Shown: piece after piece, positions 1 to 19,726 of the stretch
Position numbering within the stretch: the stretch's first letter is position 1
How the letters are laid out: every line of letters begins with the position of its first letter
Source of the DNA: Acidimicrobiia bacterium
GTDB lineage: Bacteria; Actinomycetota; Acidimicrobiia; Spongiisociales; ZC4RG35
Length of the DNA: 64,000 nucleotides
NCBI GenBank assembly: GCA_050741975.1
Contig: JBOGET010000120.1
Span: forward strand, 17,156-81,155
Reading direction: 5' to 3'
Translations under genes and position numbers: made by a program
The notes under the pieces: generated by a model
Told to the model about the DNA's origin: nothing
Seen by the model: the letters and a program-made list of their open reading frames with translations, nothing else
Database searches by the model: none

Positions 1-647
1 ACGGTCCCCGCAACCCCGATGTCGGTCAGGGTCGTGATCACCTGGGCCGGTCCGGCCGATGACTCCACCTGATAGCGGATCACGGTCACCAGGCCGTTCT
101 GGATGGTGAGGGAGAAGGGCACACCCTGGGCCGGGCCTGCCGCCGGGCCCAGCAGCCCGGTGAGGACCCCTCCCGTCGCGTCGCCCGACTCGAGTCTCAG
201 GTCATTGGCGTCGACCAGGGCGGCGAGCGGCGGTGATACCGGGGGCTCCCCTTCCAGGGGCACCCATTCGCCGTCGGCTCCGGTGACCCATTCGCCATCC
301 GGTGTCCTCACATAGGAGACGGCGCCCGAACCGGTGGAGATCTCGGCCGCCACTGAACCCCCATCCACGTTCCCTGTGATCGTGGTCAGGGTCTGCTCCC
401 CTACCAACACCACGGACGAGAACCTGTAATTGGCACTGGTTGCAGCGAGACTGTCGCCGACCAAGGAGACGGCATCGGCAGGTTGAGTTGTTGCGGTCGC
501 GTCGGTTGTCGTCGTTGTGCCGGCTTCGCTCATGGTCGGCGCCGACGTGGCGGAAGCCGTTGCCGGCGAGCTGCTCGTCTCGTCGACGGGCTCACCGGTG
601 CAGGCGACGACGAGCACGATGGCGAGGACGGGGAGGACCCTCGTCAA
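1..647 (-). CDS. Putative lipoprotein (5' end in window, C-terminus runs off window start)
   Basis: Reverse-complement reading from a TTG at 647 gives MTRVLPVLAIVLVVAC-TGEP..., a signal peptide with an L-V-V-A-C lipobox, then a Thr/Ser-rich linker. A GGAG-containing stretch lies upstream. It is absent from the ORF track because no stop falls inside the window. Confidence 0.4.
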   Translation of the reverse strand, partial: MTRVLPVLAIVLVVACTGEPVDETSSSPATASATSAPTMSEAGTTTTTDATATTQPADAVSLVGDSLAATSANYRFSSVVLVGEQTLTTITGNVDGGSVAAEISTGSGAVSYVRTPDGEWVTGADGEWVPLEGEPPVSPPLAALVDANDLRLESGDATGGVLTGLLGPAAGPAQGVPFSLTIQNGLVTVIRYQVESSAGPAQVITTLTDIGVAGT

Positions 648-694
648 GGGTCCCCCCCGACTCCGTGGAGACAGTTGATCAACCATTCACCCGG

Positions 695-1573
695 TCAACC
701 TTCGCCATCGCCGCCTTCGCCGTCGCCGCCGTCGTCATCGCCGCCGTCCTTGCGGTCGTCGTCATCGTGATCCCGGTCACTGCTCTTGTCCCCATCACGA
801 TCGTCGTCGTCATCTCGATCCCACTTGTCGCGATGGTCGTCGTCATCGTCCCAATGCTTGTGCCGATCCCGATCCGAGACAGTCACCGACAGACGAACCT
901 TGACCTCGCCGTCGTCGTCGTCGACATAGGTCTTGGCAACGAGTGTCACCTTGGCCTTCTCCTCACCGGAGGTCAGCCGAACCTTGACCTTGTAGGAGGA
1001 CTTGTCGTCGTCGTCGGAGACCCGAGCCTTGGGCTCGCCGACCTCGGCCACCACGCCATCGGGGACGACGACCTCGCCGACGGTGATGATCGGCGCGTTG
1101 CCATCGAAGGACACCGTGTAGGGGATGGTGACCAGACCGTTGCCAAAGATGTCGGCCGACCAGGAGCCCGGACCGGTGATGTCGGCAGTGGCGTCGGCCT
1201 TGACCGTGGTCTTGATCTTGTCGCCTCGAGACTTGACCACGATCTCGGTGTTCCCGTCGCTGAGGAGGAACACAACCTTGTGGTCGTTCTCCTTGATGAT
1301 GGTGGACCCGTCGGCAGGATCGAGTGCGACCGCAGAGATCTCGCCGTCCTCACCCCGTGTGGTGATGGTCACGCTGAGACCGGTCCCCAGGACGGGGAGT
1401 GAGGACAGAACCTCGGTGATCTCGTGCTCCGGGACAGTCGTCTCCGGCTCGCCGACCTCGGTCTCGTCTAGATCGGTGTCCTTGTCCCCGGCCAGGGATG
1501 CGCCCGGCGTCGCTGTCACCAACACCATGGCCAGACACCACATCAGGGCTTTTCGTCTGTATCGGAATCTCAT
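695..1573 (-). CDS. Secreted protein with extremely acidic Asp/His/Arg-rich C-terminal tail
   Basis: N-terminal signal peptide (MRFRYRRKALMWCLAMVLVTATPGASLAG). The C-terminus is ...DDDDDHRDKWDRDDDDDRDGDKSSDRDHDDDD.... It lies immediately downstream of the anti-sigma gene on the same strand. Confidence 0.55.
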   Translation of the reverse strand: MRFRYRRKALMWCLAMVLVTATPGASLAGDKDTDLDETEVGEPETTVPEHEITEVLSSLPVLGTGLSVTITTRGEDGEISAVALDPADGSTIIKENDHKVVFLLSDGNTEIVVKSRGDKIKTTVKADATADITGPGSWSADIFGNGLVTIPYTVSFDGNAPIITVGEVVVPDGVVAEVGEPKARVSDDDDKSSYKVKVRLTSGEEKAKVTLVAKTYVDDDDGEVKVRLSVTVSDRDRHKHWDDDDDHRDKWDRDDDDDRDGDKSSDRDHDDDDRKDGGDDDGGDGEGGDGEG

Positions 1574-1600
1574 TTCTCATGCCTCCTTGTCCGGAGTCGG

Positions 1601-2422
1601 TCAATCGTGACCGTCGCGCCTCTCGTCGTCGGACGACCTGTCGTCGTCCTGCTCGTCCTCGCGTAGCTCCTCCTCTTCGTCGTGATCCATTTCCTTGTGA
1701 TCTCGATGCTCCTCGTCGTCCCGGTCATCCCAATGAGGCCTGCCCTCACCCCCACCATCCCCGAGCCTGGCCCCACCCTCCCGATTACCGGCACGCCCTT
1801 CGTCGTCGGTCTCGGAGCGCCGATCGATGCGATCGGCTACGAGGTCGCGCCACGACCGGGTGCGTTCGTCGCTGTCGAGCTCGCAGCCGGCAGCGGGCCC
1901 TTCGCCGGCTTGCTCGTGCTCGCCGCATTCAGGCCACTCTTCACGCTGGTCGTCCCGTGCGGCGAGGATCGGCTGAGACGAGCTCGGCTCGGCTGACGAT
2001 GTGTGTGGTTCGGCGGTCTCGGCGGTGGCCGAGTCGATGTCGCCCTCGGCCTCACCCTCCTCCGGGGGAGGGGCGAGAGCCGGCTCGGCGCCGTCCGAGG
2101 CGACTCCGACGGCTCCCTCGGGATAGGGAACGGGGATGGGGACAGGCAGGGCCCTGGCAACGTCCGCCACGACATCCTGGATCGGCGCAGGCAGACCCCC
2201 GGCGAGGGCCACGCCTCCCGTCCCCAAGACGGTGCCCAGGATGGCGGCCATCACCGCCAGGCGGACCGCCCGGGCCCGCCGGGCCGTATGGGCAGACCTT
2301 GCGGCCATGGCGGCGGTGGTCACATGGCGTGTTGCGGTCGGCTCGTCCGGTCCGGCCACGAGGTCGTCAGCCAGAGCCGACAGGAAGGCTTCAGGATCTC
2401 GGTACGGCTCTGGCTGGCGCAC
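1601..2422 (-). CDS. Putative membrane-anchored anti-sigma factor (single TM, acidic extracytoplasmic tail)
   Basis: Lies 30 nt downstream of the ECF sigma gene. Short cytoplasmic N-terminus, one TM helix (AVRLAVMAAILGTVLGTGGVALAGGL), and a D/E/H-rich C-terminus. No recognisable zinc-finger anti-sigma motif. Confidence 0.45.
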   Translation of the reverse strand: MRQPEPYRDPEAFLSALADDLVAGPDEPTATRHVTTAAMAARSAHTARRARAVRLAVMAAILGTVLGTGGVALAGGLPAPIQDVVADVARALPVPIPVPYPEGAVGVASDGAEPALAPPPEEGEAEGDIDSATAETAEPHTSSAEPSSSQPILAARDDQREEWPECGEHEQAGEGPAAGCELDSDERTRSWRDLVADRIDRRSETDDEGRAGNREGGARLGDGGGEGRPHWDDRDDEEHRDHKEMDHDEEEELREDEQDDDRSSDDERRDGHD

Positions 2423-2452
2423 GTGAGGGAATCGTCTCCGTGCCCGATTGCC

Positions 2453-3088
2453 TTACGTCTCGTCGAGCATCTCCTGCAGCGCCCTGCGTGCCCGATGCTG
2501 CAGCTGCTCGACCGACCCCGTGGTCCTCCCGGTGATCTCGGCCACCTGCTTCGAGGTCCAGCCACCCAGCGCCCGCAGGATCAGCACCTCGCTCTGGTCG
2601 TCGGTCAGCCGGTCGAGGAGACCGAGCAGGTCACCGAGTGCGACCGTGGCGAGAGCTTCTCCCTCCACGTCGTCGAGGGATGGAACCGCCTCGTGGATGC
2701 CGGTGTCCAACGGGTCCTCACGTCGCCGGGCGCGACGACGTATGTCGTCGACGCGGCGGGCCCTGGCGATGGTGAACACCCATGCCCTGAACCCTGGGGC
2801 ATCTCCGCGAAATCGTCCGATCCCGCGGGCGACGTCCACGAACACATCACCGAGCACGTCTTCGGCGTCGGGGATGCGACTGGCCCGGAGGTAGCCCAAA
2901 ACCTGGGGGGCGAGCCATTGGTAGAGGACGCGCCATGCTTCATCATCTCCGTGCCGGGCGGCACGGAGATGGATGCGAAACTGGCTGTCCGTGATGCCCG
3001 AACTTGGCCTCATGCAGGGTTTTGGGGGGACACGGAGCCTCGTCTTGGGCTCTTCTCGCCTCCCGGCATCGGGCGGAAGGGCAGTCAA
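2453..3088 (-). CDS. ECF-type RNA polymerase sigma-70 factor
   Basis: Sigma-70 region 2 (WRVLYQWLAPQVLGYL...DAEDVLGDVFVDVARGIGRFRG) and a region 4 HTH (SEVLILRALGGWTSKQVAEITGRTTGSVEQLQHRARRAL). The true start may be the internal Met at about 3013. Confidence 0.8.
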   Translation of the reverse strand: MTALPPDAGRREEPKTRLRVPPKPCMRPSSGITDSQFRIHLRAARHGDDEAWRVLYQWLAPQVLGYLRASRIPDAEDVLGDVFVDVARGIGRFRGDAPGFRAWVFTIARARRVDDIRRRARRREDPLDTGIHEAVPSLDDVEGEALATVALGDLLGLLDRLTDDQSEVLILRALGGWTSKQVAEITGRTTGSVEQLQHRARRALQEMLDET

Positions 3089-3165
3089 GAAGCGGGACGG
3101 ACCGGGCGGGTGGGGCTATTGCTCGCCGAGGGAGGCGGGAGCGGGTTCCAGGTCCGTCCCGACGT

Positions 3166-3178
3166 TCTTGACTGTCAA
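3166..3178. promoter_or_regulatory. Perfect palindrome CTTGAC-T-GTCAAG in sigma-factor / BMC-operon intergenic region
   Basis: A 6-1-6 inverted repeat seen directly in the 180-bp gap between the BMC operon end (3272) and the ECF sigma start. Too short a loop for a hairpin, so a possible operator. Confidence 0.2.
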
Positions 3179-3271
3179 GGACGGCGTCTTACCCCGGCAC
3201 CCGGAAGTTGAAACATGGCCGTTCCCGAGCCCTTCTGTAGCCTCCTGGCGCCATATACGGCGCTGCGTACC

Positions 3272-3562
3272 TCAGGTAAGCCGGCGCACCTCGCCGTCCA
3301 CGACGAGCTGGTCGACGATGCCGACCACGACGGCGCGGATCGCTCCCCGGTCCAGGCCCAGGATCTGGCGGGCGGAGCTCCCCTCGTCGAGGATGAGCAC
3401 GGTGTCACCCACCCCGGCGTCGACGACGTCCACGGCAATGGTGTAGCCCGATGGCTTCCCCTCCACGTCCTGGAGGTCGCAGAGGAGGAGTCGGTGCCGG
3501 TCGAGCAGGGGGATGTTGATGGTGGAGATCACCGTCCCCGCCACCCGTCCCACCTTCATCAC
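3272..3562 (-). CDS. BMC vertex (pentamer) shell protein, EutN/CcmL/PduN family (BMC-P)
   Basis: MMKVGRVAGTVISTINIPLLDRHRLLLCDL...GYTIAVDVVDAGVGDTVLILDEGSSAR matches the PF03319 pattern. A 4-nt overlap with the upstream gene. Confidence 0.85.
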   Translation of the reverse strand: MMKVGRVAGTVISTINIPLLDRHRLLLCDLQDVEGKPSGYTIAVDVVDAGVGDTVLILDEGSSARQILGLDRGAIRAVVVGIVDQLVVDGEVRRLT

Positions 3563-3834
3563 TTCTCCTCCAGATGCACGTCATCGACGATCCCCACGAT
3601 GGCATGGTCGACCGGTACGAATCGCTCGGGCAGCGCTTCGGCCGCTTCCCGCGAGGAGACGAAGTAGACCAGCTCACCGGGCCCGGCCATGGACACCGCG
3701 TCGGCGGCGACCAGGGTCTCCCCGGCGGCCTGCTCGAACTTGTCGAGCGGCTGGACGATGAGAAAACGCACCCCTTCCAGACCGAGGACCTTCTCGGTGG
3801 CCACCACACTGCCCAGGACACGGCCTAGTTGCAT
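3559..3834 (-). CDS. BMC vertex shell protein (BMC-P), second paralog
   Basis: MQLGRVLGSVVATEKVLGLEGVRFLIVQPLD...LVAADAVSMAGPGELVYFVSSREA follows the EutN/CcmL fold pattern. Confidence 0.85.
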   Translation of the reverse strand: MQLGRVLGSVVATEKVLGLEGVRFLIVQPLDKFEQAAGETLVAADAVSMAGPGELVYFVSSREAAEALPERFVPVDHAIVGIVDDVHLEEK

Positions 3835-3835
3835 C

Positions 3836-4447
3836 TCACCCGTCCCCGGCGACGGAGGATACCCGGCTCATGAAATGAAGCTCACCACGCAGATTGTCCG
3901 CCATCTCGTCGTGGAGCTGGGCGATGAGATCCGACCGGACGAGCATGCCATGGTCCCGGGCCCGGTCGGTGGCGGCGTCGAGAGCCGCCTCGACCTCGGC
4001 CACCACACCCGAGAACAGCAGGTAGCCTTTGCCCCCGAGCCCGTCGGCGAGACGGATGGCGGCCAGGCCCACATCGGCTGCCTTGACCCCCGCATCGGCG
4101 GCGTCGATGGCGGCGGCGACAGTCGTGGTCTCCACCACTCCCAATGCCTCGTCCCCGACCGGCGCCATGGTGCTGTTCCCGGTCACCGCTTCGACCACGG
4201 ACGGATGGATGTCGGGGAGAAACACCATGTCGGCCAGGGTCTCCGACCCGACCTCGGTGCCCGCCCTGACCGCCTCCTCGACACTGGCGGTGTCCCCGCT
4301 GACGAGGACCAGGTACTTGCCCGGGTGCACCGTGCCGGCGTAGATGGCACCCAGCGGCGCCGTCTTGACCATGGCGTCACCGGCGACGATGCCGGCGCTG
4401 ATCGAGCCGAACTCGAGGAGAGCGATTGCCGGGTCGCGCTCAGACAA
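3836..4447 (-). CDS. BMC-T tandem-domain shell protein (PduT/CcmO-like)
   Basis: Two PF00936-like domains. Domain 1 is ALLEFGSISAGIVAGDAMVKTAP.... Domain 2 is ALGVVETTTVAAAIDAADAGVKAADVGL.... Confidence 0.8.
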   Translation of the reverse strand: MSERDPAIALLEFGSISAGIVAGDAMVKTAPLGAIYAGTVHPGKYLVLVSGDTASVEEAVRAGTEVGSETLADMVFLPDIHPSVVEAVTGNSTMAPVGDEALGVVETTTVAAAIDAADAGVKAADVGLAAIRLADGLGGKGYLLFSGVVAEVEAALDAATDRARDHGMLVRSDLIAQLHDEMADNLRGELHFMSRVSSVAGDG

Positions 4448-5897
4448 TGCGCAGGGCCCCGACCACGGTCACCCTCCGCACCCGGGAGAAGGTGCGGGGC
4501 CGGGTCATCCCCTCCCCGGTCGGGCTGGCGATGGAGAAAGAGGTGAACCCCTCTCCGCCCTGGCCCAGGCCGTTGAAGTTGGAGCCGTTGGCCACGAAGA
4601 TGCTGCAGTTCATGGCCCGGGCCATCCGGGTGATGGTCTCGACGTTGGTGCTGTGGATGGAGGCCGTGTGCCGGAACCCATGCTCGGAGCGCACCGCCAG
4701 ATCGATGGCATCCTCCACGTTGCCCACCCGGACCACCGGCATCACAGGCATCATCTGCTCAGTCCACACCAGGTTGTGCTCCCTGGGCACCTCGGCGACG
4801 ACGAGACGGGTGTCCTCGCCGGTGGTCACACCGATCTCGGCCAGGATCTTGGCAGCGTCCTTGCCGATCCACTCCGGGTTGATCATCCCCGGCTTCCCGG
4901 GTGGCCCCATCTCCCTGAAGATCACCCGCTCCAGACGCTTCAGCTCGTGCTCCTTGAGCCGGTAGGCCCCGGCGGAGACCATGGCTTGGACCAGACGGTC
5001 GGCCACGGTGTCGACCACGATCGTCGTCTTCTCGTCTGTGCAGATCACGTTGTTGTCGAACGACGCCCCCTTGACGATGGCCCGTCCTGCCCCCTCGACG
5101 TCGGCGGTCTGGTCGACGACGGCAGGGGGATTGCCCGGCCCGGCCGTTATCGCCTTCTTGCTGGTCTTCAGGGCCTCCTTGACCACCCCCGGGCCCCCGG
5201 TCACCAGGAGCACGCTGACCTCGGGGTGGTTCATCAGTTCCCTGGCCGACTCCAGGGTCGGCGACGGAACGGCGGTGACCAGGTCGGACGGGCCGCCGGC
5301 GCCGACGATGGCCCGATTCAAGATCTGGACGTTCTCCACCGAGACCAGCCGGGCATTGGGGTGGACGTTGAAGGTGACGGCGTTCCCGGCGGAGACGATG
5401 GCAATGGCGTTGTTGATGATGGTCGAGGTGGGGTTGGTGGTCGGGGTGATCGAACCGATCACGCCGTATGGGGCGTACTCGGTGACCATCATCCCGGCGT
5501 CGCCGGTGACCACCTGGGGCTCCAAGTCCTCGGGCCCAGGGGTGCGGGTCGTCACCAGGCGGTTCTTCATCGCCTTGTCCTCACCCCGCCCCAGACCGGT
5601 CTCCTCGGCGGCCATGTAACCGAGCCGCTCCCCCTCCCGCAACATGGCGGCCCGCATGGCGTCGACGATGCTCTTGCGGGCCTCCAGCCCCATCTCCCGG
5701 TAGCCGAGGAAGGCGGTCCGGGCCGCCGACACCGCCTGCTCGATGTCGGCATGGATCCCGTCGCCGAGTTGGACGTCGGAGACGGCGAGATCGTCTGCGG
5801 CGCGCAGGGCAGGGGCCGCCCGACCCGAGATCTCGGCGGCGGCAACCCGGCCCCTGACCCGCTCGATGATGGCCTGGATCTCTGCGTCGCTCAGCAT
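4440..5897 (-). CDS. CoA-acylating aldehyde dehydrogenase (PduP/EutE family) with N-terminal encapsulation peptide
   Basis: Aligns along its full length with PduP-type AldDH (GVIGSITPTTNPTSTIINNAIAIVSAGNAV, catalytic FDNNVICTDEK, C-terminal SPTGEGMTRPRTFSRVRRV). N-terminal LSDAEIQAIIERVRG is an amphipathic helix ahead of the catalytic core. Confidence 0.9.
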   Translation of the reverse strand: MLSDAEIQAIIERVRGRVAAAEISGRAAPALRAADDLAVSDVQLGDGIHADIEQAVSAARTAFLGYREMGLEARKSIVDAMRAAMLREGERLGYMAAEETGLGRGEDKAMKNRLVTTRTPGPEDLEPQVVTGDAGMMVTEYAPYGVIGSITPTTNPTSTIINNAIAIVSAGNAVTFNVHPNARLVSVENVQILNRAIVGAGGPSDLVTAVPSPTLESARELMNHPEVSVLLVTGGPGVVKEALKTSKKAITAGPGNPPAVVDQTADVEGAGRAIVKGASFDNNVICTDEKTTIVVDTVADRLVQAMVSAGAYRLKEHELKRLERVIFREMGPPGKPGMINPEWIGKDAAKILAEIGVTTGEDTRLVVAEVPREHNLVWTEQMMPVMPVVRVGNVEDAIDLAVRSEHGFRHTASIHSTNVETITRMARAMNCSIFVANGSNFNGLGQGGEGFTSFSIASPTGEGMTRPRTFSRVRRVTVVGALRIV

Positions 5898-5899
5898 CT

Positions 5900-6211
5900 C
5901 TACCCCGTGGGCGCCTCCTCCCGGCCCTTGTGATATCTCTCCTCGCCGCCCACGTCCCAGGAGTCGACGATCGCCATGATCACCGCATCCACGGGGCGGT
6001 CCCGGGTCAGCTCGGTCTGACGGGCAGAGCTGCCCGAGGCGTAGAGCACCACCTCATCGACCCCGGCGCCGACTGCGTCCACCGCCACCACATAGCCACC
6101 GGTGTCGGAATTGTCGGCGTCGAGCTGACGCACCACCAGGAACTTCATACCCTCCATGAGGGCCTCCTTGCGGCTGGCGACCAGTGTCCCCGCAACGCGG
6201 CCTAGATGCAC
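5900..6211 (-). CDS. BMC vertex shell protein (BMC-P), third paralog
   Basis: [31 protein letters not shown]...[27 protein letters not shown] is EutN/CcmL-like. Confidence 0.8.
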
Positions 6212-6238
6212 AGTGCCATCTCCCGCCCTCGCCGCCGG

Positions 6239-6541
<303 letters not shown>

Positions 6542-6576
6542 GAAGCTGCTCCTTTCGTTGACTTCGGTTCATCGAT

Positions 6577-7236
6577 TCAACCCGATCCTGCGTCCCGCCC
6601 GGAGAGCCCCTCGAGCGCCGCCACGGCCGCCTGCCATCCGACGTCGATGTCCCGCTCTTCGCCACCCAGGTAGACCCGGCCCATCGAGCCGAAGCTGCGC
6701 ACCTCGAGGACGTTGATCTCCGCCGCCTTCTCCGCCTCGTTGGCTGCCAGTGAGGCATAGGCGGCAGGCTCGCACTCGAGGACGTAGAGGGTTTGGCCGG
6801 GGATGATCATCTGACCGTGACGGGTCCGGTTGATGAGCTGGGCATGGTGGTCGTCCAGCCGACGAATGATCTGCGAGGATAGGATGCGGGGCTTGATGCG
6901 GTCGTCCTCGGTGCTCTCGATGCCGTCGAGGATTGCCGCCCCGGCCGCCCTGGTCTCGGCCTGGTCGGGAGAGTGCACCTCGAGGACCCCGTAATAGCGC
7001 TCGATGATCTGCAGCCCGGGTTTGACGGAAGTCGCCTTGAGGGCGACATCGGTCAGGCGGTTGATCTCGATCCCGGGGGCCACCTCGACCCAGAGGGAGG
7101 CATCGCCGGCGAGAGGGAGGAAGCCCTGGGCCACGGTCCCGAGGAAGGCGGCGTACTGGGGCTGGAGGCTGTCCAGGAACGCAAACGACCTCAGCTCAAT
7201 ACCTCTCGTCACCACTACCTCCATCCCTCTTGCCAA
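6577..7236 (-). CDS. Permuted tandem BMC-T shell protein (EutL/PduB-like)
   Basis: About 219 aa with two BMC-like domains. ...[20 protein letters not shown] resembles EutL ...PNPAEVRAGLDAMIAHIENG. The second domain [44 protein letters not shown] resembles the AADAMVKAA...GGG...VAAVKAAV core. The start is uncertain (Met at 7236 or 7224) and overlaps the DeoC 3' end by about 30-40 nt. Confidence 0.6.
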
Positions 7237-8029
7237 CGATCTCGATCCCGGCCGAAGCCCCGATTCTGGTCGCCCCTGCGGCGATCATGTCTTCCGCGTC
7301 ACCCGTGGTGCGGACCCCACCCGAGGCCTTCACCCCCATGTTCGGCCCCACCGTCTCCCTCATCAACGCCACGTCGTACACGGTTGCCCCGCCCGGGCCG
7401 AACCCTGTGGAGGTCTTGACGAAGTCGGCCTTGGCCTGTTTGGCCAGGGCCGAGGCGATGACCTTCTCCTCGTCGGTGAGCAAGGCCGTCTCCAGGATCA
7501 CCTTGCACAAGCCGCCGACCTCGTGGGCGGCGTCGACCACCTTCTCCATGTCCTTCAACACCAACTCGTGGTCGCTGGACTTGAGGGCTCCGATGTTGAG
7601 CACCATGTCGACCTCGCGCGCGCCATCCCTCAGGGCCCGGCGTGCCTCCATCGCCTTCACCTCCGGCGTGGTCGCTCCCAGCGGGAACCCGATCACGGTG
7701 CACACCGGGACCGAGGTGCCCCGGAGGTTCTCGGCCGCTCGCTTGACCCAGGTGGGGTTGATGCACACGGAGGCGAAGTGGTACTGCTCCGCCTCACGGC
7801 AGAGTTGGTCGATGTCGGCGGCGGTCGCCTCCGGTTTGAGCAGGGTGTGGTCGATGTATCGGGCCATGTCGAGGGGGACCTCCGCCGCCTCGCCGTGGAA
7901 GGCAACCCGGTCGGCTCCGTTGGCCACGACCTCGCGAACCTTCTCCCCGGTGTCGCAGACGTCGTAGCGGGCGGACAGCGCGGCCAGCACCTCCCGGGTG
8001 ACCATCTCGACGAGAGTCTCCCGGTTCAT
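7196..8029 (-). CDS. deoC: Deoxyribose-5-phosphate aldolase (class I, DeoC) with ~50-aa N-terminal encapsulation-peptide extension
   Basis: [11 protein letters not shown]...[10 protein letters not shown]...[11 protein letters not shown]...[11 protein letters not shown]...[14 protein letters not shown]...[10 protein letters not shown] aligns with B. subtilis-type DeoC. The start ATG at 8029 overlaps the rpiB stop (ATGA). The extension [23 protein letters not shown] is an amphipathic helix plus linker. Confidence 0.9.
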
Positions 8030-8649
8030 CCGGTGTCCTGTCTCATTCCGACTTTGGAGTATTGCTGCTCGATTGCGTCGATCTTGGCAACCCGGCGGGC
8101 GTGCCGGTCGCCGCCCCATTCGACCGAAAGCCACTCTTCGACGATCTGCCAGGCCAGTGCATCGCCGATCAAGCCCGCTCCCAGGGTGAGGACGTTGGCG
8201 TGGTTGTGCTCCCGGCTGTTGCGGGCGGTGGACAGGTCGTGACAGGGTGCGGCGCGGACACCGGGGACCTTGTTGGCCACCATCGCCGAGCCGATGCCGG
8301 CCCCATCGACGATGACTCCGTAGCGGCAGGCGCCCGATGCCACCTCACTGGCGACCGCATGGGCGAAGTCGGGGTAGTCGACCGAGTCGTGCGAATCCGT
8401 GCCACAGTCGAGTACCTCGTAGCCCGCCTCCTTCAGGCGGAAGCCGATCTTCTCCTTGAGCGGGTACCCGCCGTGGTCGGACCCGATGGCGATCCTCGTC
8501 TTCGTGTCGCCGGGCACCGTCGTCTGCGGGGGCGAGCCGGCCTCCGCGCGCGGAGGCTGATCGGATCCGATGACGCCGTCGATGACACGCTCGACGAGCG
8601 AGCGGACTTCCTGCTCTGTGGGTGAGCTCGGGCCGGCGGGAGATGTCAT
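8026..8649 (-). CDS. rpiB: Ribose-5-phosphate isomerase B (RpiB/LacAB family) with ~55-aa N-terminal extension
   Basis: [18 protein letters not shown]...[17 protein letters not shown]...[24 protein letters not shown]...NHANVLTLG is the RpiB fold. N-terminal [17 protein letters not shown] helix followed by a Pro/Thr linker. It is the first gene of the operon. Confidence 0.85.
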
Positions 8650-8671
8650 CGGGCTGGGTGCGGCCTCACCT

Positions 8672-8694
8672 GGCCCATCCTAGGAAGATGGGCC
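8672..8694. promoter_or_regulatory. Inverted repeat GGCCCATC-N7-GATGGGCC in divergent promoter region of BMC operon
   Basis: An 8-7-8 perfect inverted repeat about 25 bp upstream of the rpiB start, between the BMC operon and the divergent HTH gene. Confidence 0.25.
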
Positions 8695-8726
8695 GGCGCC
8701 ACGGTCTTGCCCGGCCTCATGTTCTT

Positions 8727-9398
8727 ATGATGCCTCGCATGGCCGATCGGGACCCTGCCTTTCTCTGGGAGACCGAGGCGCTTCGCACCTCGGCGACGTC
8801 TCCGGGCGGCCCGCCACCCATCGCGCGATCGGCGCCGGCCGACTGGCTGACCTTGCGCCAGGCGAGCGCCGCCACCGGGATCCCGGTGTCGACCCTCCGC
8901 AACTGGGCCCGGAAGGGCAAAGTCGCCAGCTCGCTCGAGGAGACCCCCGCCGGGGCCCGTCGAATGGTCTCGCTGAAGGGGGTTGAGGACCGGGCCCGTC
9001 AGTTGGGACAGAATGTCGACGCGGTGGTCGAGACGATGGGTACGGAAATCCCCCCGACCTCGGTCCGGCAGGATCAGGTCTCACAACCCCCGGGGACGGT
9101 GCTGGTCCCCATCGATGCCTGGGACAAGATGCTGCTCCAACTGGGAAACCTGCACCAGGCCGGTCAACAATTGGCCGAGGCCAGGGAACGGGCTGCCCGG
9201 GCAGAGACCGAGGCCGACTTCCTCCGGGAGCGGTTGGCCGAGCTGAGATCCTCCAAACCCGGCTCCGACCCGGTCCACCCGACGGTGGAGGCGCCGCCTC
9301 CTATCGAGGAGGAGCCCGAGCCGGCCAAACCAACGAGGATGCCCAGCTTCACCGCCTATTTGTGGCGTCTTGCCGTGTCGGACAGGCGCCGGAAGTAG
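8727..9398 (+). CDS. Excisionase/MerR-superfamily helix-turn-helix DNA-binding protein with coiled-coil C-terminus
   Basis: WLTLRQASAATGIPVSTLRNWARKGKV is an excisionase-family HTH. C-terminal AEARERAARAETEADFLRERLAELR is helical. The track ORF starts at 8622; Met at 8727-8739 is more likely because it clears the rpiB start. Confidence 0.5.
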   Translation: MMPRMADRDPAFLWETEALRTSATSPGGPPPIARSAPADWLTLRQASAATGIPVSTLRNWARKGKVASSLEETPAGARRMVSLKGVEDRARQLGQNVDAVVETMGTEIPPTSVRQDQVSQPPGTVLVPIDAWDKMLLQLGNLHQAGQQLAEARERAARAETEADFLRERLAELRSSKPGSDPVHPTVEAPPPIEEEPEPAKPTRMPSFTAYLWRLAVSDRRRK

Positions 9399-9416
9399 AG
9401 GGAGCGAGCGTTTACA

Positions 9417-10106
9417 TCAAGGTCGCGCGGGAGATTCCTCGAAGATCCGCCCGTCGTTGAGGTGGAGCACGCGGTGGGCGTGGTCGGCCAGACCTGGGTC
9501 GTGCGTCGCCACCAGGGCGGCGAGACCGAGGCGGTCGACGAGCTCGCGGATCATCCTCATCAACTTCAGCCCGGTCTCCGAGTCGAGCTGGCCTGTCGGC
9601 TCGTCGGCAAGGAGGATCGACGGCTCGGTGACCAGTGCCCGCGCCAGCGCCACACGCTGCTGTTCTCCGCCCGAGAGCTCCTCCGGCCGATGGTCGGCCC
9701 GGGCGGTCAACCCGACCCGGCTCAGGACCTCGTCCACCAGCCTCGCCCTCTCCACGGGGTCGACCCTGCTCACCCGGAGCGGGAGCTCGACGTTCTCGGC
9801 GGCGGTGAGGATCGGGATCAATCCGCCCGACTGCACCACCAGCGAGACCTTGCTCCTTCGCAGCTCGGAGAGCTCACGCTCGCCGGCGGTGGAGAGATCG
9901 AGCCCATTCAGGCTGATCGAGCCCTCGTCGGGGCGGTCGATCCCGGCCAGCATCGACAAGAGGGTGGTCTTTCCCGCTCCCGACCGGCCCAGCAGGAGAA
10001 CCAGTTCGCCGGGGCGTAGGGCGAGATCGACCCCGTCGATGGCCCTGATCTCAGCGTCTCCCACCTGGAATCGGCGGTGCAGGTCGGTGGCCAGCAATAC
10101 CGTCAC
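9417..10106 (-). CDS. ABC transporter ATP-binding protein (MacB/FtsE-like)
   Basis: Walker A LLGRSGAGKTT, signature LSGGEQQRVALARAL, Walker B LLADEPTGQLD. The likely GTG start overlaps the upstream gene's stop (GTGA). Confidence 0.85.
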   Translation of the reverse strand: MTVLLATDLHRRFQVGDAEIRAIDGVDLALRPGELVLLLGRSGAGKTTLLSMLAGIDRPDEGSISLNGLDLSTAGERELSELRRSKVSLVVQSGGLIPILTAAENVELPLRVSRVDPVERARLVDEVLSRVGLTARADHRPEELSGGEQQRVALARALVTEPSILLADEPTGQLDSETGLKLMRMIRELVDRLGLAALVATHDPGLADHAHRVLHLNDGRIFEESPARP

Positions 10107-11023
10107 GAACCGATGCCTTTGAAGTCCGAAGGCCATACCCGCACGTGGTCCTCCTCCAACGTCAGCTTCACCCGTTTCGCCATCCCCAGCCGCTCCACAT
10201 ACTCGGCGGGCAGCTGGAGCCTCCCGGCGCGATCGAGAACAGCGAACTCCGAGGAGGGAACCCGGCCTTCCTCGTCACGGTGAATGATCTCGGTGGCAGT
10301 CCTCCCGTCGCGAATGGCAACGGTCCGGTCGACGTGCTCGGCTATGAGGGGGTCATGGCTGACCACGACCGCCGACATCCCTAGCTCCTCGTTGAGAGTC
10401 CGGAGCGTGCTGAGGACCTCGTGGCTGGTGGCGCTGTCGAGGTCACCGGTCGGCTCGTCGGCGAGGAGCACCTCGGGATCGTTGGCCAGCGCAACCGCCA
10501 GAGCCACCCGCTGCTGCTCTCCGGGGGAGAGCCGCCCCGGCCGGTGGTCGAGCCGGTGGGACATCCCCACCATCGCGAGCAGCTGGCGGCCTCTGCTCAT
10601 CCTGGCCCACTTGGGGAGACCGGCCAGCGCCGAAGGGAGGTCGACGTTCTCCAGCGCCGTCAGATAAGGAAGGAGATTGCGGGCGCTCTGCTGCCAGACG
10701 AACCCGACCGCTCGCCTCCGGTATTGGACCCGGCGTCGGCGCGACATGCGGAGCAGCTCGAAATCACCTACCCGGACCTTCCCCGCCGTCGGGGTGTCGA
10801 TGGCGCCCAGGATGTTGAGCAAAGTCGACTTCCCGCTTCCCGACGCGCCCACTACCGCCACCATCTCGCCGCGGTCCACCACCAGGTCGAGACCCTGGAG
10901 GGCGACCACCTCGAGCTTCGATGACGAGTAGATCTTGACGAGGTTGTCGCAGACGATGTGGGCGCCCTCGCCAAACCCGGGCGCATGTTGATGGTCGGGG
11001 ATCATCACTGGCTCGATCATCAT
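10103..11023 (-). CDS. ABC transporter ATP-binding protein with ~70-aa C-terminal extension
   Basis: VVGASGSGKSTLL, LSPGEQQRVALAVAL, LLADEPTGDLD. Extra C-terminal domain (...EFAVLDRAGRLQLPAEYVERLGMAKRVKLTLEEDHVRVWP). Confidence 0.85.
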   Translation of the reverse strand: MMIEPVMIPDHQHAPGFGEGAHIVCDNLVKIYSSSKLEVVALQGLDLVVDRGEMVAVVGASGSGKSTLLNILGAIDTPTAGKVRVGDFELLRMSRRRRVQYRRRAVGFVWQQSARNLLPYLTALENVDLPSALAGLPKWARMSRGRQLLAMVGMSHRLDHRPGRLSPGEQQRVALAVALANDPEVLLADEPTGDLDSATSHEVLSTLRTLNEELGMSAVVVSHDPLIAEHVDRTVAIRDGRTATEIIHRDEEGRVPSSEFAVLDRAGRLQLPAEYVERLGMAKRVKLTLEEDHVRVWPSDFKGIGS

Positions 11024-13680
11024 CGCACCTCGCTCCGAAGAGCCTCAACCGCATCGGCCGCGCCCAACCTCCTGCCGGCGACGACGGCGACGACCACTGC
11101 CACGATGACGAGGACCGCCGGCGCCACCAGGAGCCCAAGCGGGTCGACGGTCGGGCCCACCCTCCCCGGGGCCCCGGTGAGCCGGGCGAGGGCGGACGCC
11201 TCCACCCCGAGCCTCACCGCTACGATGCCGGCCAGGACTCCGGCGAGGGTGGCGGGAACCACCGGGACCACGAGCTCCAGCGTCACCAGCGCCGACATCG
11301 ACGGCCGCGGCACCCCGATGAGGTCGAGATGGGCCGCCTCGTTGGCCCGGCGCGACCCAGTGAGCAAGGCAACCAACAAGATGGTGGCGACACCAAAGAT
11401 GAGCGACACCACCGACACCGTCCGGAATCCTCCCGGGACCGCGGCCGAGAAGGGGGAGGCGCTCAGATCGGCGACGACGCCGCGCCGCACCGTCACCGAC
11501 GCCGTGGACTCGACGCCTTCTACCAACTCGGCGATCGCCACGTCCCCGTCGACCGGCGCATCGGGTGTGAGGTCGAGATAGAGGCGGTCGAGGCGCTGCT
11601 CGATCAGCGGCGCGGCTCTGATCGCCTCATCGAGGAAGGTGACGACAAACGGCGCCTGGACCGACGGGAACTCGTCTACTACCCCCTCCACCTCGACCAT
11701 GACCCTTTGGCCGCCAAGGATGAGGGCAATGACGTCGCCCGGCTCACCCACCCCCGGAGAGACCAGGGCGGACAGCCGGGCCCCACGTGAAGGCAACGGA
11801 ACCGGGATCGGCGAACCAGAGCCGATCCTCGACAGGGCGTCGAGGTCGGCGGCGAGAAACCCGACATCTCGGGCCTGTCCCAGGACCTTGACGTTCTCCG
11901 CGTAGGCGAGGGTGGTCTCGCCGACCTCAGCCATCGACTCGAGACCCGCCTCCTCCACGATGGTGGCCACCGCGTCCGACTCGATCATCAGGTCGGCGCC
12001 CACGGTGCGCCACCCCGTGCGCTCTTGCTCGGTGCGAAGTGTGGTCTCGAACACGAAGGCGTAGGTGGCGGTGGTGACGACCAGGACCACGACCACCGGC
12101 AGCGCCAGACCCTGCCGGTCCCGGCTGAACCGCCGGAGCACCAACGCCGCCACCAGCCCACGTCCACGACGGGCGGCGGCGGCCAGGGAAGGGGCCACGA
12201 GCGAGTAGAGCCGTACCAGCACCAAGGCCGCGGCCAGTGCGAGAAGCGGCGGGGCGAGGGCGAGCAAGAGGTCGAACCGCCCGAGCGGCTCCGCCCGTCG
12301 CCGAGCGAGGAGGATGGCGACCACCACGGCGAGGGCCACCACACCCACCTCGACGGCCGCCCTACCCACCCTCTCCAAACGTCCCGTCGCCCGGGGAGCG
12401 TCCCACCACACTGTCACAATCGCCACGATGAGCGTCACGAGGAAGGCGATTGCCCCTGCCTGCCACGCCGACAACCCGTCGAGAGCAGTCAGACGGTCTG
12501 CCACGATGGCGGCCAGCGTCCCTGCCAGGGCCGAGAGTGCCAAGGTCGCCGCGGTCGACGTCGTGATCTGGAGCCCGTTCGCTCCCCGGTCCCGCGCCAG
12601 TTCGGTGGTGTGCCGCCTTCTCTCGGCCAGGAACCGTGCAAGCACGAGGATGGCGGCGAGTGCTGCCAGAGCCGCCGAGATGCCGGCCACCAAGAGGAAG
12701 CTCCGAGTCGCCTCGAGGTCCGCCTCCGCCCGTGTGAAGATGTTGGGGAGCCCGCTCTGGATGAGAAGGCCGTCCCCGGCGGGATGGCTCAGCTCGGAGA
12801 GCCTGGCGAAGCCGAGCGAGAGGGCGTCCCGCCCGGCGGGGTCGTAACGCCCCGGATCGACCAGGAACCGCCAGGTGACCCTGGGTTCGATGACGCCCAA
12901 CCCGACCGCTTCGACGGCAGCCAGCGAACCGTCGTCCACGAGTGCGGTGACGTCGACCAACTTGTTGAGGTTCGCATCGAACGACACCGCCGGGTCGAGA
13001 AGAGCGATATCCCCGCCCCAGAACCTCTCGTCGCGGTCGACGCCCTCGAACAGGCCGGTCACCACGACCTCGAAGGGCATCGCCCGTCGACCAGCGAGGA
13101 ACAGCCTGCGACCATCGCCGGTCAGCCTCACCTCGACCACATCGCCGACGCCAACCTCCGTCGCCGAGGCGGAGGCCGAGCTCAGCGCCACCTCCAAGGG
13201 CTCGGTGCCGACCTTGGGCCTCGGCCAGGAGCCCTCGACGAGGGCGAGGTGGTCCCGTGCGGTTGGCTGAACACGGAAGTTGAAGGTCCGCAGGAGCTCC
13301 CCGGTGGGGGTGGTCGGGCTCGTCATTCCCACTTGCGGAGCCTCCATTTCCACCCGTCGATCGGCGACGAGGGCGGCGACCTGGGGATGGAGCTCCTCAT
13401 CGAGGATCCGCCCGCCCTCGCCGGTGAGGGCACTCAACGACGCCACCGAGGTGAACTGCGTGGCGGTGATGTGACGCGTCAGCGGCGAGGACTGCGACAC
13501 CAGGTAGGGGAACTGGGCCGCCTCGACCGATTGGTAATCGGCACTGAGTGCCGCGGCGGCGTGGGTGAGGGACCCCACCAACACCATGACGGCGAGGCTC
13601 ACCGGGCCGTCCCACCGGGCAAGCAGGGTCACGGGGCGAAGCAGCGACCAGCCCCCCCGACCGACCGGCTCGCTCACCAT
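11020..13680 (-). CDS. ABC transporter permease, double FtsX-domain type (TM-ECD-3TM-TM-ECD-3TM)
   Basis: Two large extracytoplasmic domains, each followed by an FtsX-like TM cluster. The track ORF is extended to 14229; Met at about 13680 abuts the upstream gene's stop. Confidence 0.75.
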   Translation of the reverse strand: MVSEPVGRGGWSLLRPVTLLARWDGPVSLAVMVLVGSLTHAAAALSADYQSVEAAQFPYLVSQSSPLTRHITATQFTSVASLSALTGEGGRILDEELHPQVAALVADRRVEMEAPQVGMTSPTTPTGELLRTFNFRVQPTARDHLALVEGSWPRPKVGTEPLEVALSSASASATEVGVGDVVEVRLTGDGRRLFLAGRRAMPFEVVVTGLFEGVDRDERFWGGDIALLDPAVSFDANLNKLVDVTALVDDGSLAAVEAVGLGVIEPRVTWRFLVDPGRYDPAGRDALSLGFARLSELSHPAGDGLLIQSGLPNIFTRAEADLEATRSFLLVAGISAALAALAAILVLARFLAERRRHTTELARDRGANGLQITTSTAATLALSALAGTLAAIVADRLTALDGLSAWQAGAIAFLVTLIVAIVTVWWDAPRATGRLERVGRAAVEVGVVALAVVVAILLARRRAEPLGRFDLLLALAPPLLALAAALVLVRLYSLVAPSLAAAARRGRGLVAALVLRRFSRDRQGLALPVVVVLVVTTATYAFVFETTLRTEQERTGWRTVGADLMIESDAVATIVEEAGLESMAEVGETTLAYAENVKVLGQARDVGFLAADLDALSRIGSGSPIPVPLPSRGARLSALVSPGVGEPGDVIALILGGQRVMVEVEGVVDEFPSVQAPFVVTFLDEAIRAAPLIEQRLDRLYLDLTPDAPVDGDVAIAELVEGVESTASVTVRRGVVADLSASPFSAAVPGGFRTVSVVSLIFGVATILLVALLTGSRRANEAAHLDLIGVPRPSMSALVTLELVVPVVPATLAGVLAGIVAVRLGVEASALARLTGAPGRVGPTVDPLGLLVAPAVLVIVAVVVAVVAGRRLGAADAVEALRSEVR

Positions 13681-16600
13681 TGCTCCACTCCACGTCGGGC
13701 CGGCGCCGCCCTCATCGTGCGGGCCCGTCCTACCACCGCCAGGAGCATGACCACCAGCACCAGCCCGATCCCGGCAACCACGAGGAGCGCCCGAATCGCC
13801 GGAAGCTCCACGGTGGCGGCAGGCACCGGTTGGCGCCCATCGGACCCGAGCGTCACCGATCCGAGCAGGAGGTAGGAGAGGAGGACCCCCAGCCCCCCAC
13901 CGGCGAGCCCTGAAAAGAGGAGCAAGGCGCCATGCTCGACCGCCAGAGCGGTCGACAGTTGGCGCGAGCTCATCCCGGCCATGATCATGACGATCATCTC
14001 GGAGCGCCGCTCCTCGAGGGCGGAGGCCAGCGCCGTCGCCATGATCACCGCAGCCAGCAAGGCAGCCAGGGCTGCACCGAGATACGACGCCGCCAGAAGG
14101 CCCAGCGGCAGCGGGTCGCCCAAGAGCTCGGCGAGCCGCCCGGCGCGGGTGGTCACCTCGGCGGCGCCGGCCGCCAGCAGCGCCGACCGAGCCGCCGCAG
14201 GGTCGCCTCGATCCAAAGAAGCCCACCACTCGTCAGGGCCGCCCACTCTTCCCGACGCGGCGAACTCCAGCGTCGCAAGAGCAGCGCGGTCCATGACGAT
14301 GATCCCGTCGTCGGGGTCGCCCGTGGGAAAGAGCTCGACCACGCCCACTACCTCGAACTCACGGCGCAGGCCGGCGAAGACGAGCTGGAAATGATCCCCG
14401 TCGCCGACGACCGACGCCGAGGCAAAGGTCTCGTTGACGATCACCGCGATTGGCGCGTCGACCGGAGGGGTGGACGCCAGGTACCTGGTCACGGTGTTGA
14501 CACCGTCCGATTCTCCCGGCAGCGCAACCCAATCGAGGGTCAAGGAGACGGTTCCGGAGTCCGACTCGACGATCACCGCTTCCGGACGCGCATCGGGCGC
14601 ATCCACCACCACCCCGATCACCGTCAGCGGCGTCGAGGCCTCATCGAGGGCTCCTGCGCCCTCCAACCATTCTCTCGGGGCCAGGGCGGGACCTGCCGCG
14701 CCGGAAAGCACATGGAGCACGCCTTGGAAGTCGCGGACCACGAGCTCGACCCGGGCCGGTCGGTCGGTGACGACGGCGACTCGTCGGGGAGCTCCCAGCT
14801 CCACTCCGAGACCGGCCCAGGCCCCTCCCAACTCGTCGGCGCGCAGAATGCCACCAAGGGGACGTCCTCGTACCAGGCCGATGTCCGCCACCCCGGGCCC
14901 CACACCGAGCACGACGCCACCGTCGGTGGCCGAGGCCAGCGACAGGGCCCTCCGGGTGACTGGGACGACCGAACTCACACCTGGCGCCGCTGCGAAGCCG
15001 GTGCCTTCGCCGAAGGGCGCCGGGTCGGTCTCCAGAGCCCTCTCCGGGATGATCAAGGCGTCGGACCCGACCTGGTGCGAGGCGCGATCGGCCTGCGAGT
15101 TGGTCCAGGTGGCGTCAAATGCAAGGGCGAAGACCAGCATCGCCACCGCCAGCACGGTGAGGATCGATGAGTGGGTATGACGCCCAGCACGCGAGCCGAA
15201 GTTCCTCATCCCCAACCACAGCGGGACGGCCTCGGTACCTGAGGTCAGCCTGGCTGTTCCGGCGCTGGCCGCCGGAACGAGACGGGCCGCGACCGAAGGG
15301 GCCAGGAGCAACGCCACCGCCGGAACCGCGAGGAGGGCGGGATCGCCGCCGCTCGCCAGCCGGGGCGGGTTGAAGAGCAGGACCGCCATCGCCACCACAG
15401 CGATCCCAGCCAGAACCAAGTCGATCCGGGTGCGGCGGAGGAGGTCGGGGGCGGGTGACCCGATGCGTGAGGCCATGAGAGCCACCAGCGCCACGGCCAC
15501 GGCGATGGCGCCACCGGCGAAGACGTAGGCGGTGGCGTCGAGTCCCGCTTCGAGGATCAGTCCGGCCTCCACGAAGGTGGGCAGCCTTCCCAGGGCGTCG
15601 ACTGCCCAGGATGCCAACCACGGTCCGGCGACCACTGCCGGGATCCCGAGGAGAGTCGCCTGCAAGGCTCCCGCGATCATCATCTGCCGGCGTGTGCCGC
15701 CCCGCAGCTCGATCGTTTGGTAGTGGCGGCGCAGCGACGCCATCAACGACGCGGCTGCCGACCACATGGCAAAGCCGGCCATCAACGAAAGCTGCACGGA
15801 GGTGGCGTTGATCCCGGCGGAGGAGACCTCCACCTTCCTCCGCAGGTCTGCTTCGAGAGTCGGGAAGTCGGATTCGACGCCGACCTCGAGCGCCGCCAGA
15901 CGCTCGTCGACAGACCGCATGCCGTCGGAGACCCGCCCCAGGTCATCCGAGGTGATCGATCCGAAATCGGGAAAGACCCGCCATTCCTGACGGGCCCCAT
16001 AGCCCTCCACCACGTCGTCGAAGCTCCGGCCTGAGACGACCAGAGGCCCGGTGACGACGAACTCCGCCGTGACCCGGCGCCCGGCCGTCTCCAGGAGCTC
16101 GCCCCACCAGAACGGGTCCTGGGCGTCGACAACCCGGAAGATCCCCGCCACCGACACGGTCAGTCGGTCATGGGAGCCACCGGAGACCTCGATTCCGACA
16201 CTGTCTCCCACAACAAGACCGAGGGCGGCGGCGGCCTGCTCGGAGAGCGCAACCGGAAGCGTTTCTCCCGGTCCGACGTCTCCCGGCCAGGTCCCTTCCA
16301 CCAGCTCGGCGTGCCCCTCGATTCCCTCATGGGCGACGATGACGGTGGTGTCATAGGGCGTGGGATCGTCTTGCCAGGTGAAGGGCGCAGACTGCCGGAT
16401 CTCCGACACGGTCGCACCGGGGAGCCCATCGGAGACGACCCCGGTCACCGCGGCCGACAACTCATCCATGGAGGCAGCCCGGACCGGCGCCGAGCCCCGC
16501 AGGCCGACCGCCTCCACCGGCGCCGCCGCCAGCGCGGCGCGGAGCCCGGCGTCGCCAACAGCAGAGGAGAGGATCGGGCCTACCGACACCGAGACCGCAG

Positions 16601-16691: not shown

Positions 16692-16792
16692 CTTGCCGGA
16701 ACGGGGGGGAGCCGCAGCATCACGGCATGATATGAGCGGATCAACGTCTGGAAATCAGGCCGAGCGAGCCTGGTCGCCGGCCGGCTCCGGGT

Positions 16793-17878: not shown

Positions 17879-17940
17879 ATCGACAGGTTATCGGTATCGG
17901 GGGCCTTTCCTTTGAGCCCATCCTTGCCCTGCGACGACGA

Positions 17941-18066
17941 ACCTCAGCTTGCACGGCCCGGATATGGCACAAACTCTCTCAGGTTCAGAAGGAGGCGGCA
18001 CCCCTCACGAACTCGAGACGGTTTGTGCCACATATGAAACGCAGAAGCTCAGCTTCGACGTCGCGT
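17941..18066. repeat. MITE/REP-like inverted-repeat element, copy A
   Basis: GAACCTCAGCTTGCACGGCCCGGATATGG...CAGGTTCAG ... GAGACGGTTTGTGCCACATATG...AAGCTCAGCTTCG. About 75-80% identical to the element at 51601..51720. Intergenic between the divergent lipoprotein and metG genes. Confidence 0.4.
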
Positions 18067-18082
18067 TTACCCTCCGGAGCCT

Positions 18083-19723: not shown

Positions 19724-19726
19724 GAG

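Follow-up and report, generated by a model that had tools for sequence, protein, structure and literature searches.

The window analyzed here is a 64-kb stretch of DNA from an Acidimicrobiia bacterium (assembly GCA_050741975.1, contig JBOGET010000120.1, positions 17,156-81,155 of the forward strand), and its positions 3272-8649 hold a real, intact nine-gene operon for a bacterial microcompartment (BMC). The nine open reading frames (ORFs) lie tightly packed on the minus strand, and all of their reading frames are intact (Table 1). From 5' to 3', they encode an RpiB-like protein (ribose-5-phosphate isomerase family; RPI), DeoC (deoxyribose-5-phosphate aldolase; DERA), the trimeric shell protein BMC-T^dp, the hexameric BMC-H, a pentameric BMC-P, an acylating aldehyde dehydrogenase (AldDH), a second trimer (BMC-T^s), and two further BMC-P. 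The junctions, in operon order, measure -4, -29, +35, +27, +2, -8, +1, and -4 nt; the first of these is an ATGA shared by the rpiB stop and the deoC start, as read in the sequence, and the last is the 4-nt overlap of the two terminal BMC-P genes (P2 and P3). All nine ORFs are strongly biased toward GC at third positions, as real genes are in this sequence of 67% GC, and the GC content of the operon does not differ from that of its flanks. The families were identified by Pfam and NCBIfam profile searches. An earlier reading of this DNA (the original prediction) had described this operon, its gene order, both overlaps, and the set of DeoC, RpiB, and acylating AldDH, all of which proved to be correct. 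No further paralogs of the shell proteins, DeoC, the RpiB-like protein, or AldDH are present within the 64-kb window.

Table 1. Genes and intergenic region of the microcompartment locus (window positions), with the match or alignment behind each entry.
Feature	Position	Strand	Basis
RpiB-like protein, 207 aa	8026..8649	-	PF02502 E 1.6e-52; PRK05571 173 bits
DeoC/DERA, 277 aa, signature enzyme	7196..8029	-	PF01791; TIGR00126 285 bits
BMC-T^dp, CcmP-like tandem permuted trimer	6577..7236	-	NF053796 340.9 bits; PDB 4HT5
BMC-H hexamer, 100 aa	6239..6541	-	PF00936 E 5e-29
BMC-P paralog 1 (P1), 103 aa	5900..6211	-	PF03319 E 9e-28
CoA-acylating aldehyde dehydrogenase, 485 aa	4440..5897	-	NF011927 / PRK15398, 603 bits
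BMC-T^s, PduT-like tandem trimer, 203 aa	3836..4447	-	tandem PF00936 E 2e-33
BMC-P paralog 2 (P2), 91 aa	3559..3834	-	PF03319 E 2e-24
BMC-P paralog 3 (P3), 96 aa, GTG start, last operon gene	3272..3562	-	PF03319 E 1e-19
Divergent helix-turn-helix (HTH)/coiled-coil protein, 219 aa from conserved ATG	8739..9398	+	weak MerR/HTH_17 Pfam matches below cutoffs
Divergent intergenic region, 89 bp	8650..8738	.	alignment of 16 intergenic regions

When one genome per species was scanned, 540 stretches encoding an AldDH relative were identified, and the best 80 (71-93% identity) were fetched. Almost all of these are from metagenome-assembled genomes (MAGs) of Acidimicrobiia, with a few from Gaiellaceae. 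The order RPI-DERA-T^dp-H-P-AldDH-T^s-P-P is invariant in these best 80 of 540, as far as the contigs reach, and the operon proteins are 54-99% identical across the 80 genomes. Among the closest relatives, the MAGs of L001, L003, L005, and L007 carry the title "uncultured Acidobacteriota bacterium", although their AldDH sequences are 92-93% identical to those of Acidimicrobiia MAGs; these bins are probably mislabelled.

The shell set consists of one hexamer (BMC-H), two kinds of BMC-T trimer, and three BMC-P pentamer paralogs, as originally predicted, and the Pfam and NCBIfam matches bear this out. Shell profiles had been expected to match six ORFs. PF03319 matched three of these, and PF00936 matched those at 6239-6541 and 3836-4447, whereas 6577-7236 scored just under the PF00936 cutoff (23.1 vs. 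24.5 bits) and matched the CcmP model. For this last product, the NF053796 score reaches the CcmP cutoff of 340, the CcmP structure 4HT5 aligns with E 4e-85 and 64% identity over 205 residues, and Haliangium ochraceum HO-5816 aligns with E 2e-71. Its gating Glu-Arg pair lies in the motif IIERYYG, and the ER motif was found in 73 of 74 loci. The original prediction had called this protein EutL-like; this identity is rejected because EutL models match only at E 4e-4, as opposed to the strong matches of the CcmP model and structures. Judging from these matches, the product is a double-stacking, permuted BMC-T^dp of the CcmP-like kind. Conservation in relatives indicates that its start is more likely the ATG at 7224 (215 aa) than the TTG at 7236.

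BMC-H is 77% identical to H. ochraceum HO-5815 (5DJB and 5V74) and has the interface motifs KAAK and ARPH and the pore motif KTGGGY. BMC-P1 is 65% identical to the H. ochraceum shell pentamer in 5V74. The three BMC-P are about 40-43% identical to each other (P2 is about 42% identical to P1); P2 is 63-89% identical across related loci, and the position of P3 is conserved in all loci that reach that far. BMC-T^s matches the PduT model TIGR02526 with 100 bits, which is under the cutoff of that model, and matches PDB 3PAC and PduT chains with E 1e-36. Its pore motif is TVHPGKY, compared with TICPGKF in PduT, such that a His takes the place of the Fe-S Cys. This His is present in all 70 loci (of 79) in which the motif was found, and an Fe-S function of the PduT type is thus rejected for BMC-T^s.

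Among the enzymes, the DERA barrel is 68% identical to the solved DERA 8QPS and contains the catalytic motifs EVDMV, FVKTSTG, and GVKASGGVR, which provide the Asp and two Lys residues. These three motifs are found in 69, 70, and 58 of 72 related sequences, respectively. The DeoC start at 8029 is backed by conservation in relatives and by sequence, and it places about 52 extra residues before the region aligned to solved DERAs. This extension opens with an amphipathic motif that is kept in relatives. In an AlphaFold2 (AF2) model of DeoC, the TIM barrel has high confidence and residues 3-21 form a helix with a predicted local distance difference test (pLDDT) score below 50; confidence is low there because the alignment is shallow. 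AldDH has the catalytic Cys motif FDNNVIC, which is found in 81 of 81 AldDH sequences. Its closest solved relative is chain 5JFL (E 8e-120), which we take to be the PduP of Rhodopseudomonas palustris. The N-terminus of AldDH carries the encapsulation peptide LSDAEIQAIIERVRGRV, which is kept in all relatives aligned.

The RpiB-like protein consists of an N-terminal encapsulation-peptide motif, a Pro/Ala-rich linker, and an RpiB domain, and is 53.5% identical to the solved RpiB chain 3PH3. The RpiB-like protein, DERA, and AldDH each have about 45-55 extra N-terminal residues that begin with a short amphipathic motif. These motifs are conserved across relatives and the linkers behind them vary, suggesting that all three enzymes carry encapsulation peptides. 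In one close relative (L001, about 7135-7383), the RpiB-like gene has no encapsulation-peptide motif in frame, as the tblastn alignment does not start until query residue 48. This gap may be a frameshift or an assembly error.

Taken together, these features bear on whether the genes still form a compartment. They might instead be a relic or only loosely linked, with cytosolic enzymes and decaying shell genes. Such a history could be argued from the lack of experimental assembly evidence for this locus and from the L001 gene described above, but it is very improbable given the nine intact frames with high third-position GC, the order and sequence kept across the 80 genomes, the retained interface, pore, and gate motifs, and the conservation of encapsulation-peptide motifs ahead of variable linkers.

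For the type of compartment, the gene content points to the sugar phosphate-utilizing (SPU) class. SPU was defined in 2014 and comprised more than 280 loci in seven subtypes by 2021 (Sutter 2021), and 206 SPU loci were later curated (Dwyer, Sutter, Kerfeld 2024; PMC11585597). As in this class, a DeoC-type aldolase (pfam01791) is encoded here among shell genes, an acylating AldDH is present in the locus, and a pfam02502 protein with Asp in place of Cys66 adjoins DERA. The DERA has an N-terminal extension unlike housekeeping DERAs (about 52 residues, with the helix at low AF2 confidence). Three PF03319 genes form the BMC-P triplet, with P2 and P3 adjacent and P1 apart beside BMC-H, as has been reported for the pentamer triplet of SPU loci. 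The original prediction of an SPU type is therefore borne out, and it can be sharpened to subtype SPU3. No signature enzyme family of the propanediol-utilization (PDU), ethanolamine-utilization (EUT), glycyl radical enzyme (GRM), or Rhodococcus and Mycobacterium (RMM) microcompartment types was found among the approximately 40 longer window ORFs scanned.

SPU3 was catalogued with 31 loci from phyla that include Actinobacteria (Sutter 2021, Supplementary Data 2). Its only enzymes are AldDH, pfam01791, and pfam02502 proteins, with RPI first and N-terminal encapsulation peptides on AldDH and DERA (Sutter 2021). In its shell, a single BMC-H and three BMC-P occur together with a BMC-T^dp of the CcmP-like kind and a BMC-T^s that lacks both an associated PduS and the pore Cys (Sutter 2021). 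In the BMC-T^dp tree of the catalogue, the Actinobacteria SPU3 member A0A1F2Y269 is labelled Tdp_bland_ccmPlike. The locus analyzed here corresponds to this description feature by feature. RPI precedes DERA, and AldDH, DERA, and RPI are the only such enzymes, without a PduS for BMC-T^s, among the window ORFs and recurrent neighbours scanned. Conserved amphipathic motifs lie at the N-termini of AldDH and DERA, and the shell combines a CcmP-like BMC-T^dp, a BMC-T^s with TVHPGKY, and one BMC-H with KAAK/ARPH. Because the enzyme set, shell set, pore residues, and encapsulation peptides all fit, we consider it highly probable that this is an SPU3-type sugar-phosphate metabolosome operon, located on the chromosome of an uncultured Acidimicrobiia-like actinobacterium and working by the published SPU scheme. 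Some differences from the catalogued SPU3 loci are apparent. RPI and DERA are separate genes in this locus, whereas 12-20 SPU3 loci have a fusion of the two; BMC-H has ARPH as its interface motif, compared with PRPH in the SPU3 description; and the conserved divergent HTH gene is not mentioned in the catalogue text. The lineage (Acidimicrobiia and some Gaiellaceae) is also far more populated now, with at least 80 species-level genomes.

The resemblance of the shell proteins to those of H. ochraceum (HO) and of beta-carboxysomes raises the question of whether the locus encodes an HO-type compartment, for which the function is unknown, or a carboxysome-like one. The HO shell (5V74) likewise has a single BMC-H and three BMC-P, with the identities of 77% and 65% given above for BMC-H and BMC-P, and the BMC-T^dp reaches the CcmP equivalog cutoff, with the Glu-Arg pair of CcmP (4HT5 and 5LSR) kept. 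However, HO shells have two BMC-T^dp and HO main loci have AldDH without DERA or RPI, whereas the operon here has one BMC-T^dp and includes both DERA and RPI. The BMC-T^s is also closer to PduT than to HO BMC-T1 (5DIH, E 4e-23). RuBisCO, CcmM/CcmN, carbonic anhydrase, and CsoS2 were all absent among the window ORFs scanned against Pfam; the cargo and organizing proteins of the beta-carboxysome are not in this locus, and the context here is catabolic. Moreover, CcmP-like BMC-T^dp occur in SPU2, SPU3, and HO (Sutter 2021). An HO-type or carboxysome-like identity is accordingly scarcely credible. As for CcmP, the presumed role of the BMC-T^dp is that of a gated pore through which larger phosphorylated metabolites or cofactors pass. 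Among the other SPU subtypes, SPU2 differs in having a fourth BMC-P, a mostly Cys-containing BMC-T^s, and a distribution in other phyla.

Experimental knowledge of SPU compartments comes from other systems. The only SPU enzymes characterized in vitro are those of the SPU6 locus of Chloroflexi bacterium GWB2_54_36 (PMC11585597). The purified SPU6 DERA cleaves deoxyribose-5-phosphate in vitro, and the purified SPU6 RPI is essentially inactive and forms a complex with DERA (PMC11585597). SPU6 shares with this locus the DERA N-terminal extension and D/K/K motifs, the Asp for Cys66 and encapsulation peptide of RPI, the BMC-P triplet, a BMC-T^dp, and the absence of a phosphotransacylase (PTAC). It differs in its AldDH, which is from another branch and has a C-terminal encapsulation peptide, in its BMC-T^dp, which is from another clade, in the absence of a BMC-T^s from the operon studied, and in its regulator, which is of the GntR/UTRA kind as opposed to the HTH/coiled-coil protein here. 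In addition, SPU-type shells have been assembled in vitro from Hodarchaeales proteins (2025 preprint; PMC12747264). The Hodarchaeales system resembles this locus in its DERA and AldDH core, RPI, and BMC-P triplet, and DNA-derived deoxyribose-5-phosphate is the proposed substrate, as here. Absent from this locus are the PTAC and PduS/MNdh found in the Hodarchaeales loci, as well as their DERA fused to a flavoprotein and the disordered, DNA-binding tail that one of their pentamers carries. The claim of the original prediction that SPU compartments were known only from comparative genomics, with their substrate unproven, no longer holds in view of the SPU6 DERA activity and the assembled shells; what still stands is that no report of the isolation of a native SPU compartment or of proof of its substrate in vivo was found in the literature searched. 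That literature also contained no later experimental SPU paper and no paper on Acidimicrobiia compartments.

The role of the RpiB-like protein is the point on which two readings of the organelle diverge. The original prediction treated it as a working isomerase, which does not agree with its catalytic loop. The loop reads IVDGAGIG, with DGAG (D115 and A117) in place of the CGTG of solved RpiB chains; the catalytic Cys/Thr pair is lost, and the equivalent of Thr68 is Ala117. Of 68 related loci, 66 have the DGAG loop, which agrees with the rule that all SPU RPIs carry Asp for Cys66 (PMC11585597). The equivalents of the substrate-binding residues D9/H10, H99/N100, and R133/R137 are retained. In 17 more distant loci (including L035, L038, L040, L041, L044, L047, L054, L058, L061, and L065), a second RpiB gene lies on the opposite strand downstream of the last BMC-P; its product lacks an N-terminal extension and has a canonical loop with Cys (VCGSGAG). 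The window does not have this arrangement.

From these patterns, the RpiB-like protein is most likely a DERA-binding packaging partner and not an isomerase. It is also conceivable that, within the same organelle, the protein is a working enzyme with Asp115 as the base, or a sugar-phosphate sensor, and that the compartment handles another sugar phosphate besides or instead of deoxyribose-5-phosphate. The near-invariant DGAG loop and the complete retention of the binding residues suggest selection on a ligand-binding site, the possibility of RPI activity on other, rare sugar phosphates is left open by PMC11585597, and the canonical Cys-containing RpiB that adjoins the locus in 17 relatives indicates that the BMC copy is not simply redundant. 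Nevertheless, we consider this alternative unlikely. The SPU6 RPI has negligible activity on ribose-5-phosphate and forms a stable complex with DERA, and inside the shell no pathway leads from an RPI product to either DERA or AldDH (PMC11585597). The loss of the Thr68 equivalent also argues against catalysis, and the fusion of RPI and DERA in some SPU3 loci fits a structural partnership. In its fuller form, the alternative would make the RpiB-like protein a ligand-dependent component, either an Asp-base isomerase acting on an unrecognized sugar phosphate or a sensor linking substrate to the packing of cargo or to the activity of DERA, with the HTH/coiled-coil protein as a lineage-specific regulator of the organelle. 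We regard this version, too, as doubtful; if true, the actinobacterial SPU3 organelle would have an undescribed substrate range or control logic.

With the RpiB-like protein as a packaging partner, the published SPU scheme would apply to this locus as follows. The RpiB-like protein, DERA, and AldDH would be drawn into the shell by their N-terminal amphipathic encapsulation peptides, with the RpiB-like protein helping to pack DERA. Deoxyribose-5-phosphate from the breakdown of deoxynucleosides or DNA would enter the shell and be cleaved by DERA to glyceraldehyde-3-phosphate, which would leave, and acetaldehyde, which would be retained. AldDH would then convert acetaldehyde, CoA, and NAD+ to acetyl-CoA and NADH. 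PTAC, PduS, alcohol dehydrogenase (ADH), and triosephosphate isomerase (TPI) were found neither among the window ORFs scanned against Pfam nor among the recurrent neighbours scanned in the 80 loci. With no PTAC, ADH, or PduS gene, the cofactors must cross the shell, and the acetyl-CoA/CoA and NADH/NAD+ pairs would likely pass through the BMC-T^dp and its wide gated pore. Cofactor passage across the shell has likewise been argued for PTAC-less SPU subtypes (PMC11585597). Expression of the operon would be controlled by the divergent HTH protein. In this scheme, we infer the encapsulation, the in vivo substrate, the cofactor traffic, and the regulation, and the DERA activity, RPI inactivity, and DERA-RPI complex are carried over by analogy from SPU6, which is another subtype.

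Several points weigh against this interpretation as a whole. SPU3 loci, including this one, are known from sequence alone, and the subtype assignment reflects the fit to a published description. The AF2 model only weakly indicates a helical fold for the DERA extension, given its pLDDT below 50. The strict conservation of DGAG together with intact binding residues is as compatible with a retained ligand-dependent function of the RpiB-like protein as with a role as a pure scaffold. Phosphopentomutase, nucleoside phosphorylase, deoxyribokinase, and nucleoside transporter genes were not seen in the window or among conserved neighbours, and no deoxynucleoside genes are conserved near the related loci. 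Finally, a sigma-70 consensus scan found no promoter.

The divergent gene next to the operon encodes a MerR/HTH_17-like protein with a conserved N-terminal DPAFLWETEALR motif and a C-terminal coiled coil, and its start at ATG 8739 was set by conservation. The gene occupies the same position in 57 related loci. Approximately 1280 homologues, 215-232 aa in length, make up the family; they have either no name or the name HTH/MerR, and the protein has no NCBIfam or PDB match. It is probably a regulator of the BMC operon, for which we propose it as a candidate. Alignment of the intergenic regions identified a conserved TATGAT 7 nt before the ATG of the HTH gene, whose transcript could thus be leaderless. 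The operon strand has a conserved TAGGAT/TAGAGT with GGAGG after it, and a perfect 8-bp inverted repeat (8672-8679 / 8687-8694) overlaps TAGGAT. From these conserved elements, we infer back-to-back promoters with an operator. Consensus scanning found no intrinsic terminators, and no Rfam match (riboswitch or other known RNA) was found within 1-20000.

Downstream of the operon, an extracytoplasmic function (ECF) sigma-factor gene at 2453-3088 is followed by ORFs of unknown function. This sigma gene was considered as a part of the locus and rejected, as it is linked in only 2 of the 80 loci. The 183-nt gap between it and the last BMC-P gene contains a near-palindrome with 13-nt arms at 3160-3186 (CGACGTTCTTGAC / GTCAAGGACGGCG), which has no T-run and is thus unlike a typical intrinsic terminator. 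The ORFs at 695-1573, 1601-2422, and 16793-17887, all on the minus strand, have coding-like composition but match no Pfam or NCBIfam model. In L012 and partly in L008, as in the window, the first two come after the ECF sigma gene, and their products may be anti-sigma or partner proteins of the ECF sigma factor. Beyond the HTH gene, the minus-strand region 9417-16691 contains genes for two ATP-binding cassette (ABC) ATPases together with two very long ORFs for FtsX-type permeases (listed at 1069 and 1005 aa). As listed, the permease ORFs overlap by more than 500 nt, and the start given for 11020-14229 thus probably lies too far upstream. Elsewhere, the window holds housekeeping genes, namely those for methionyl-tRNA synthetase (MetRS), 2-oxoacid:ferredoxin oxidoreductase, paa functions, ATP synthase, and serine hydroxymethyltransferase (SHMT). 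Recurrent neighbours in the related loci are housekeeping genes, namely NUDIX/His-phosphatase, EamA, hydrolase, PPK1, and ABC genes and, downstream, a 6-phosphogluconolactonase-family gene; the arrangement with the last of these is absent from the window.

Publications already cover the SPU type, its subtype, its in vitro signature reaction, and the anomalous RPI, and this locus opens no new question. The additions made here are small and consist of the conserved divergent HTH/coiled-coil gene, the conserved promoter-like motifs, and the corrected start codons. SPU compartments are among the most widespread BMCs and have been proposed to enable cells to use DNA debris as food, with acetaldehyde kept inside the compartment. 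In this context, the locus is a minimal intact SPU3 example with three enzymes and six shell proteins, the latter closely similar to those of HO, the model shell that is understood best. It would be a reasonable construct for probing shell assembly, cofactor traffic without recycling enzymes, and the RPI partner. For the soil Acidimicrobiia, the operon looks like a stable, widely inherited trait.

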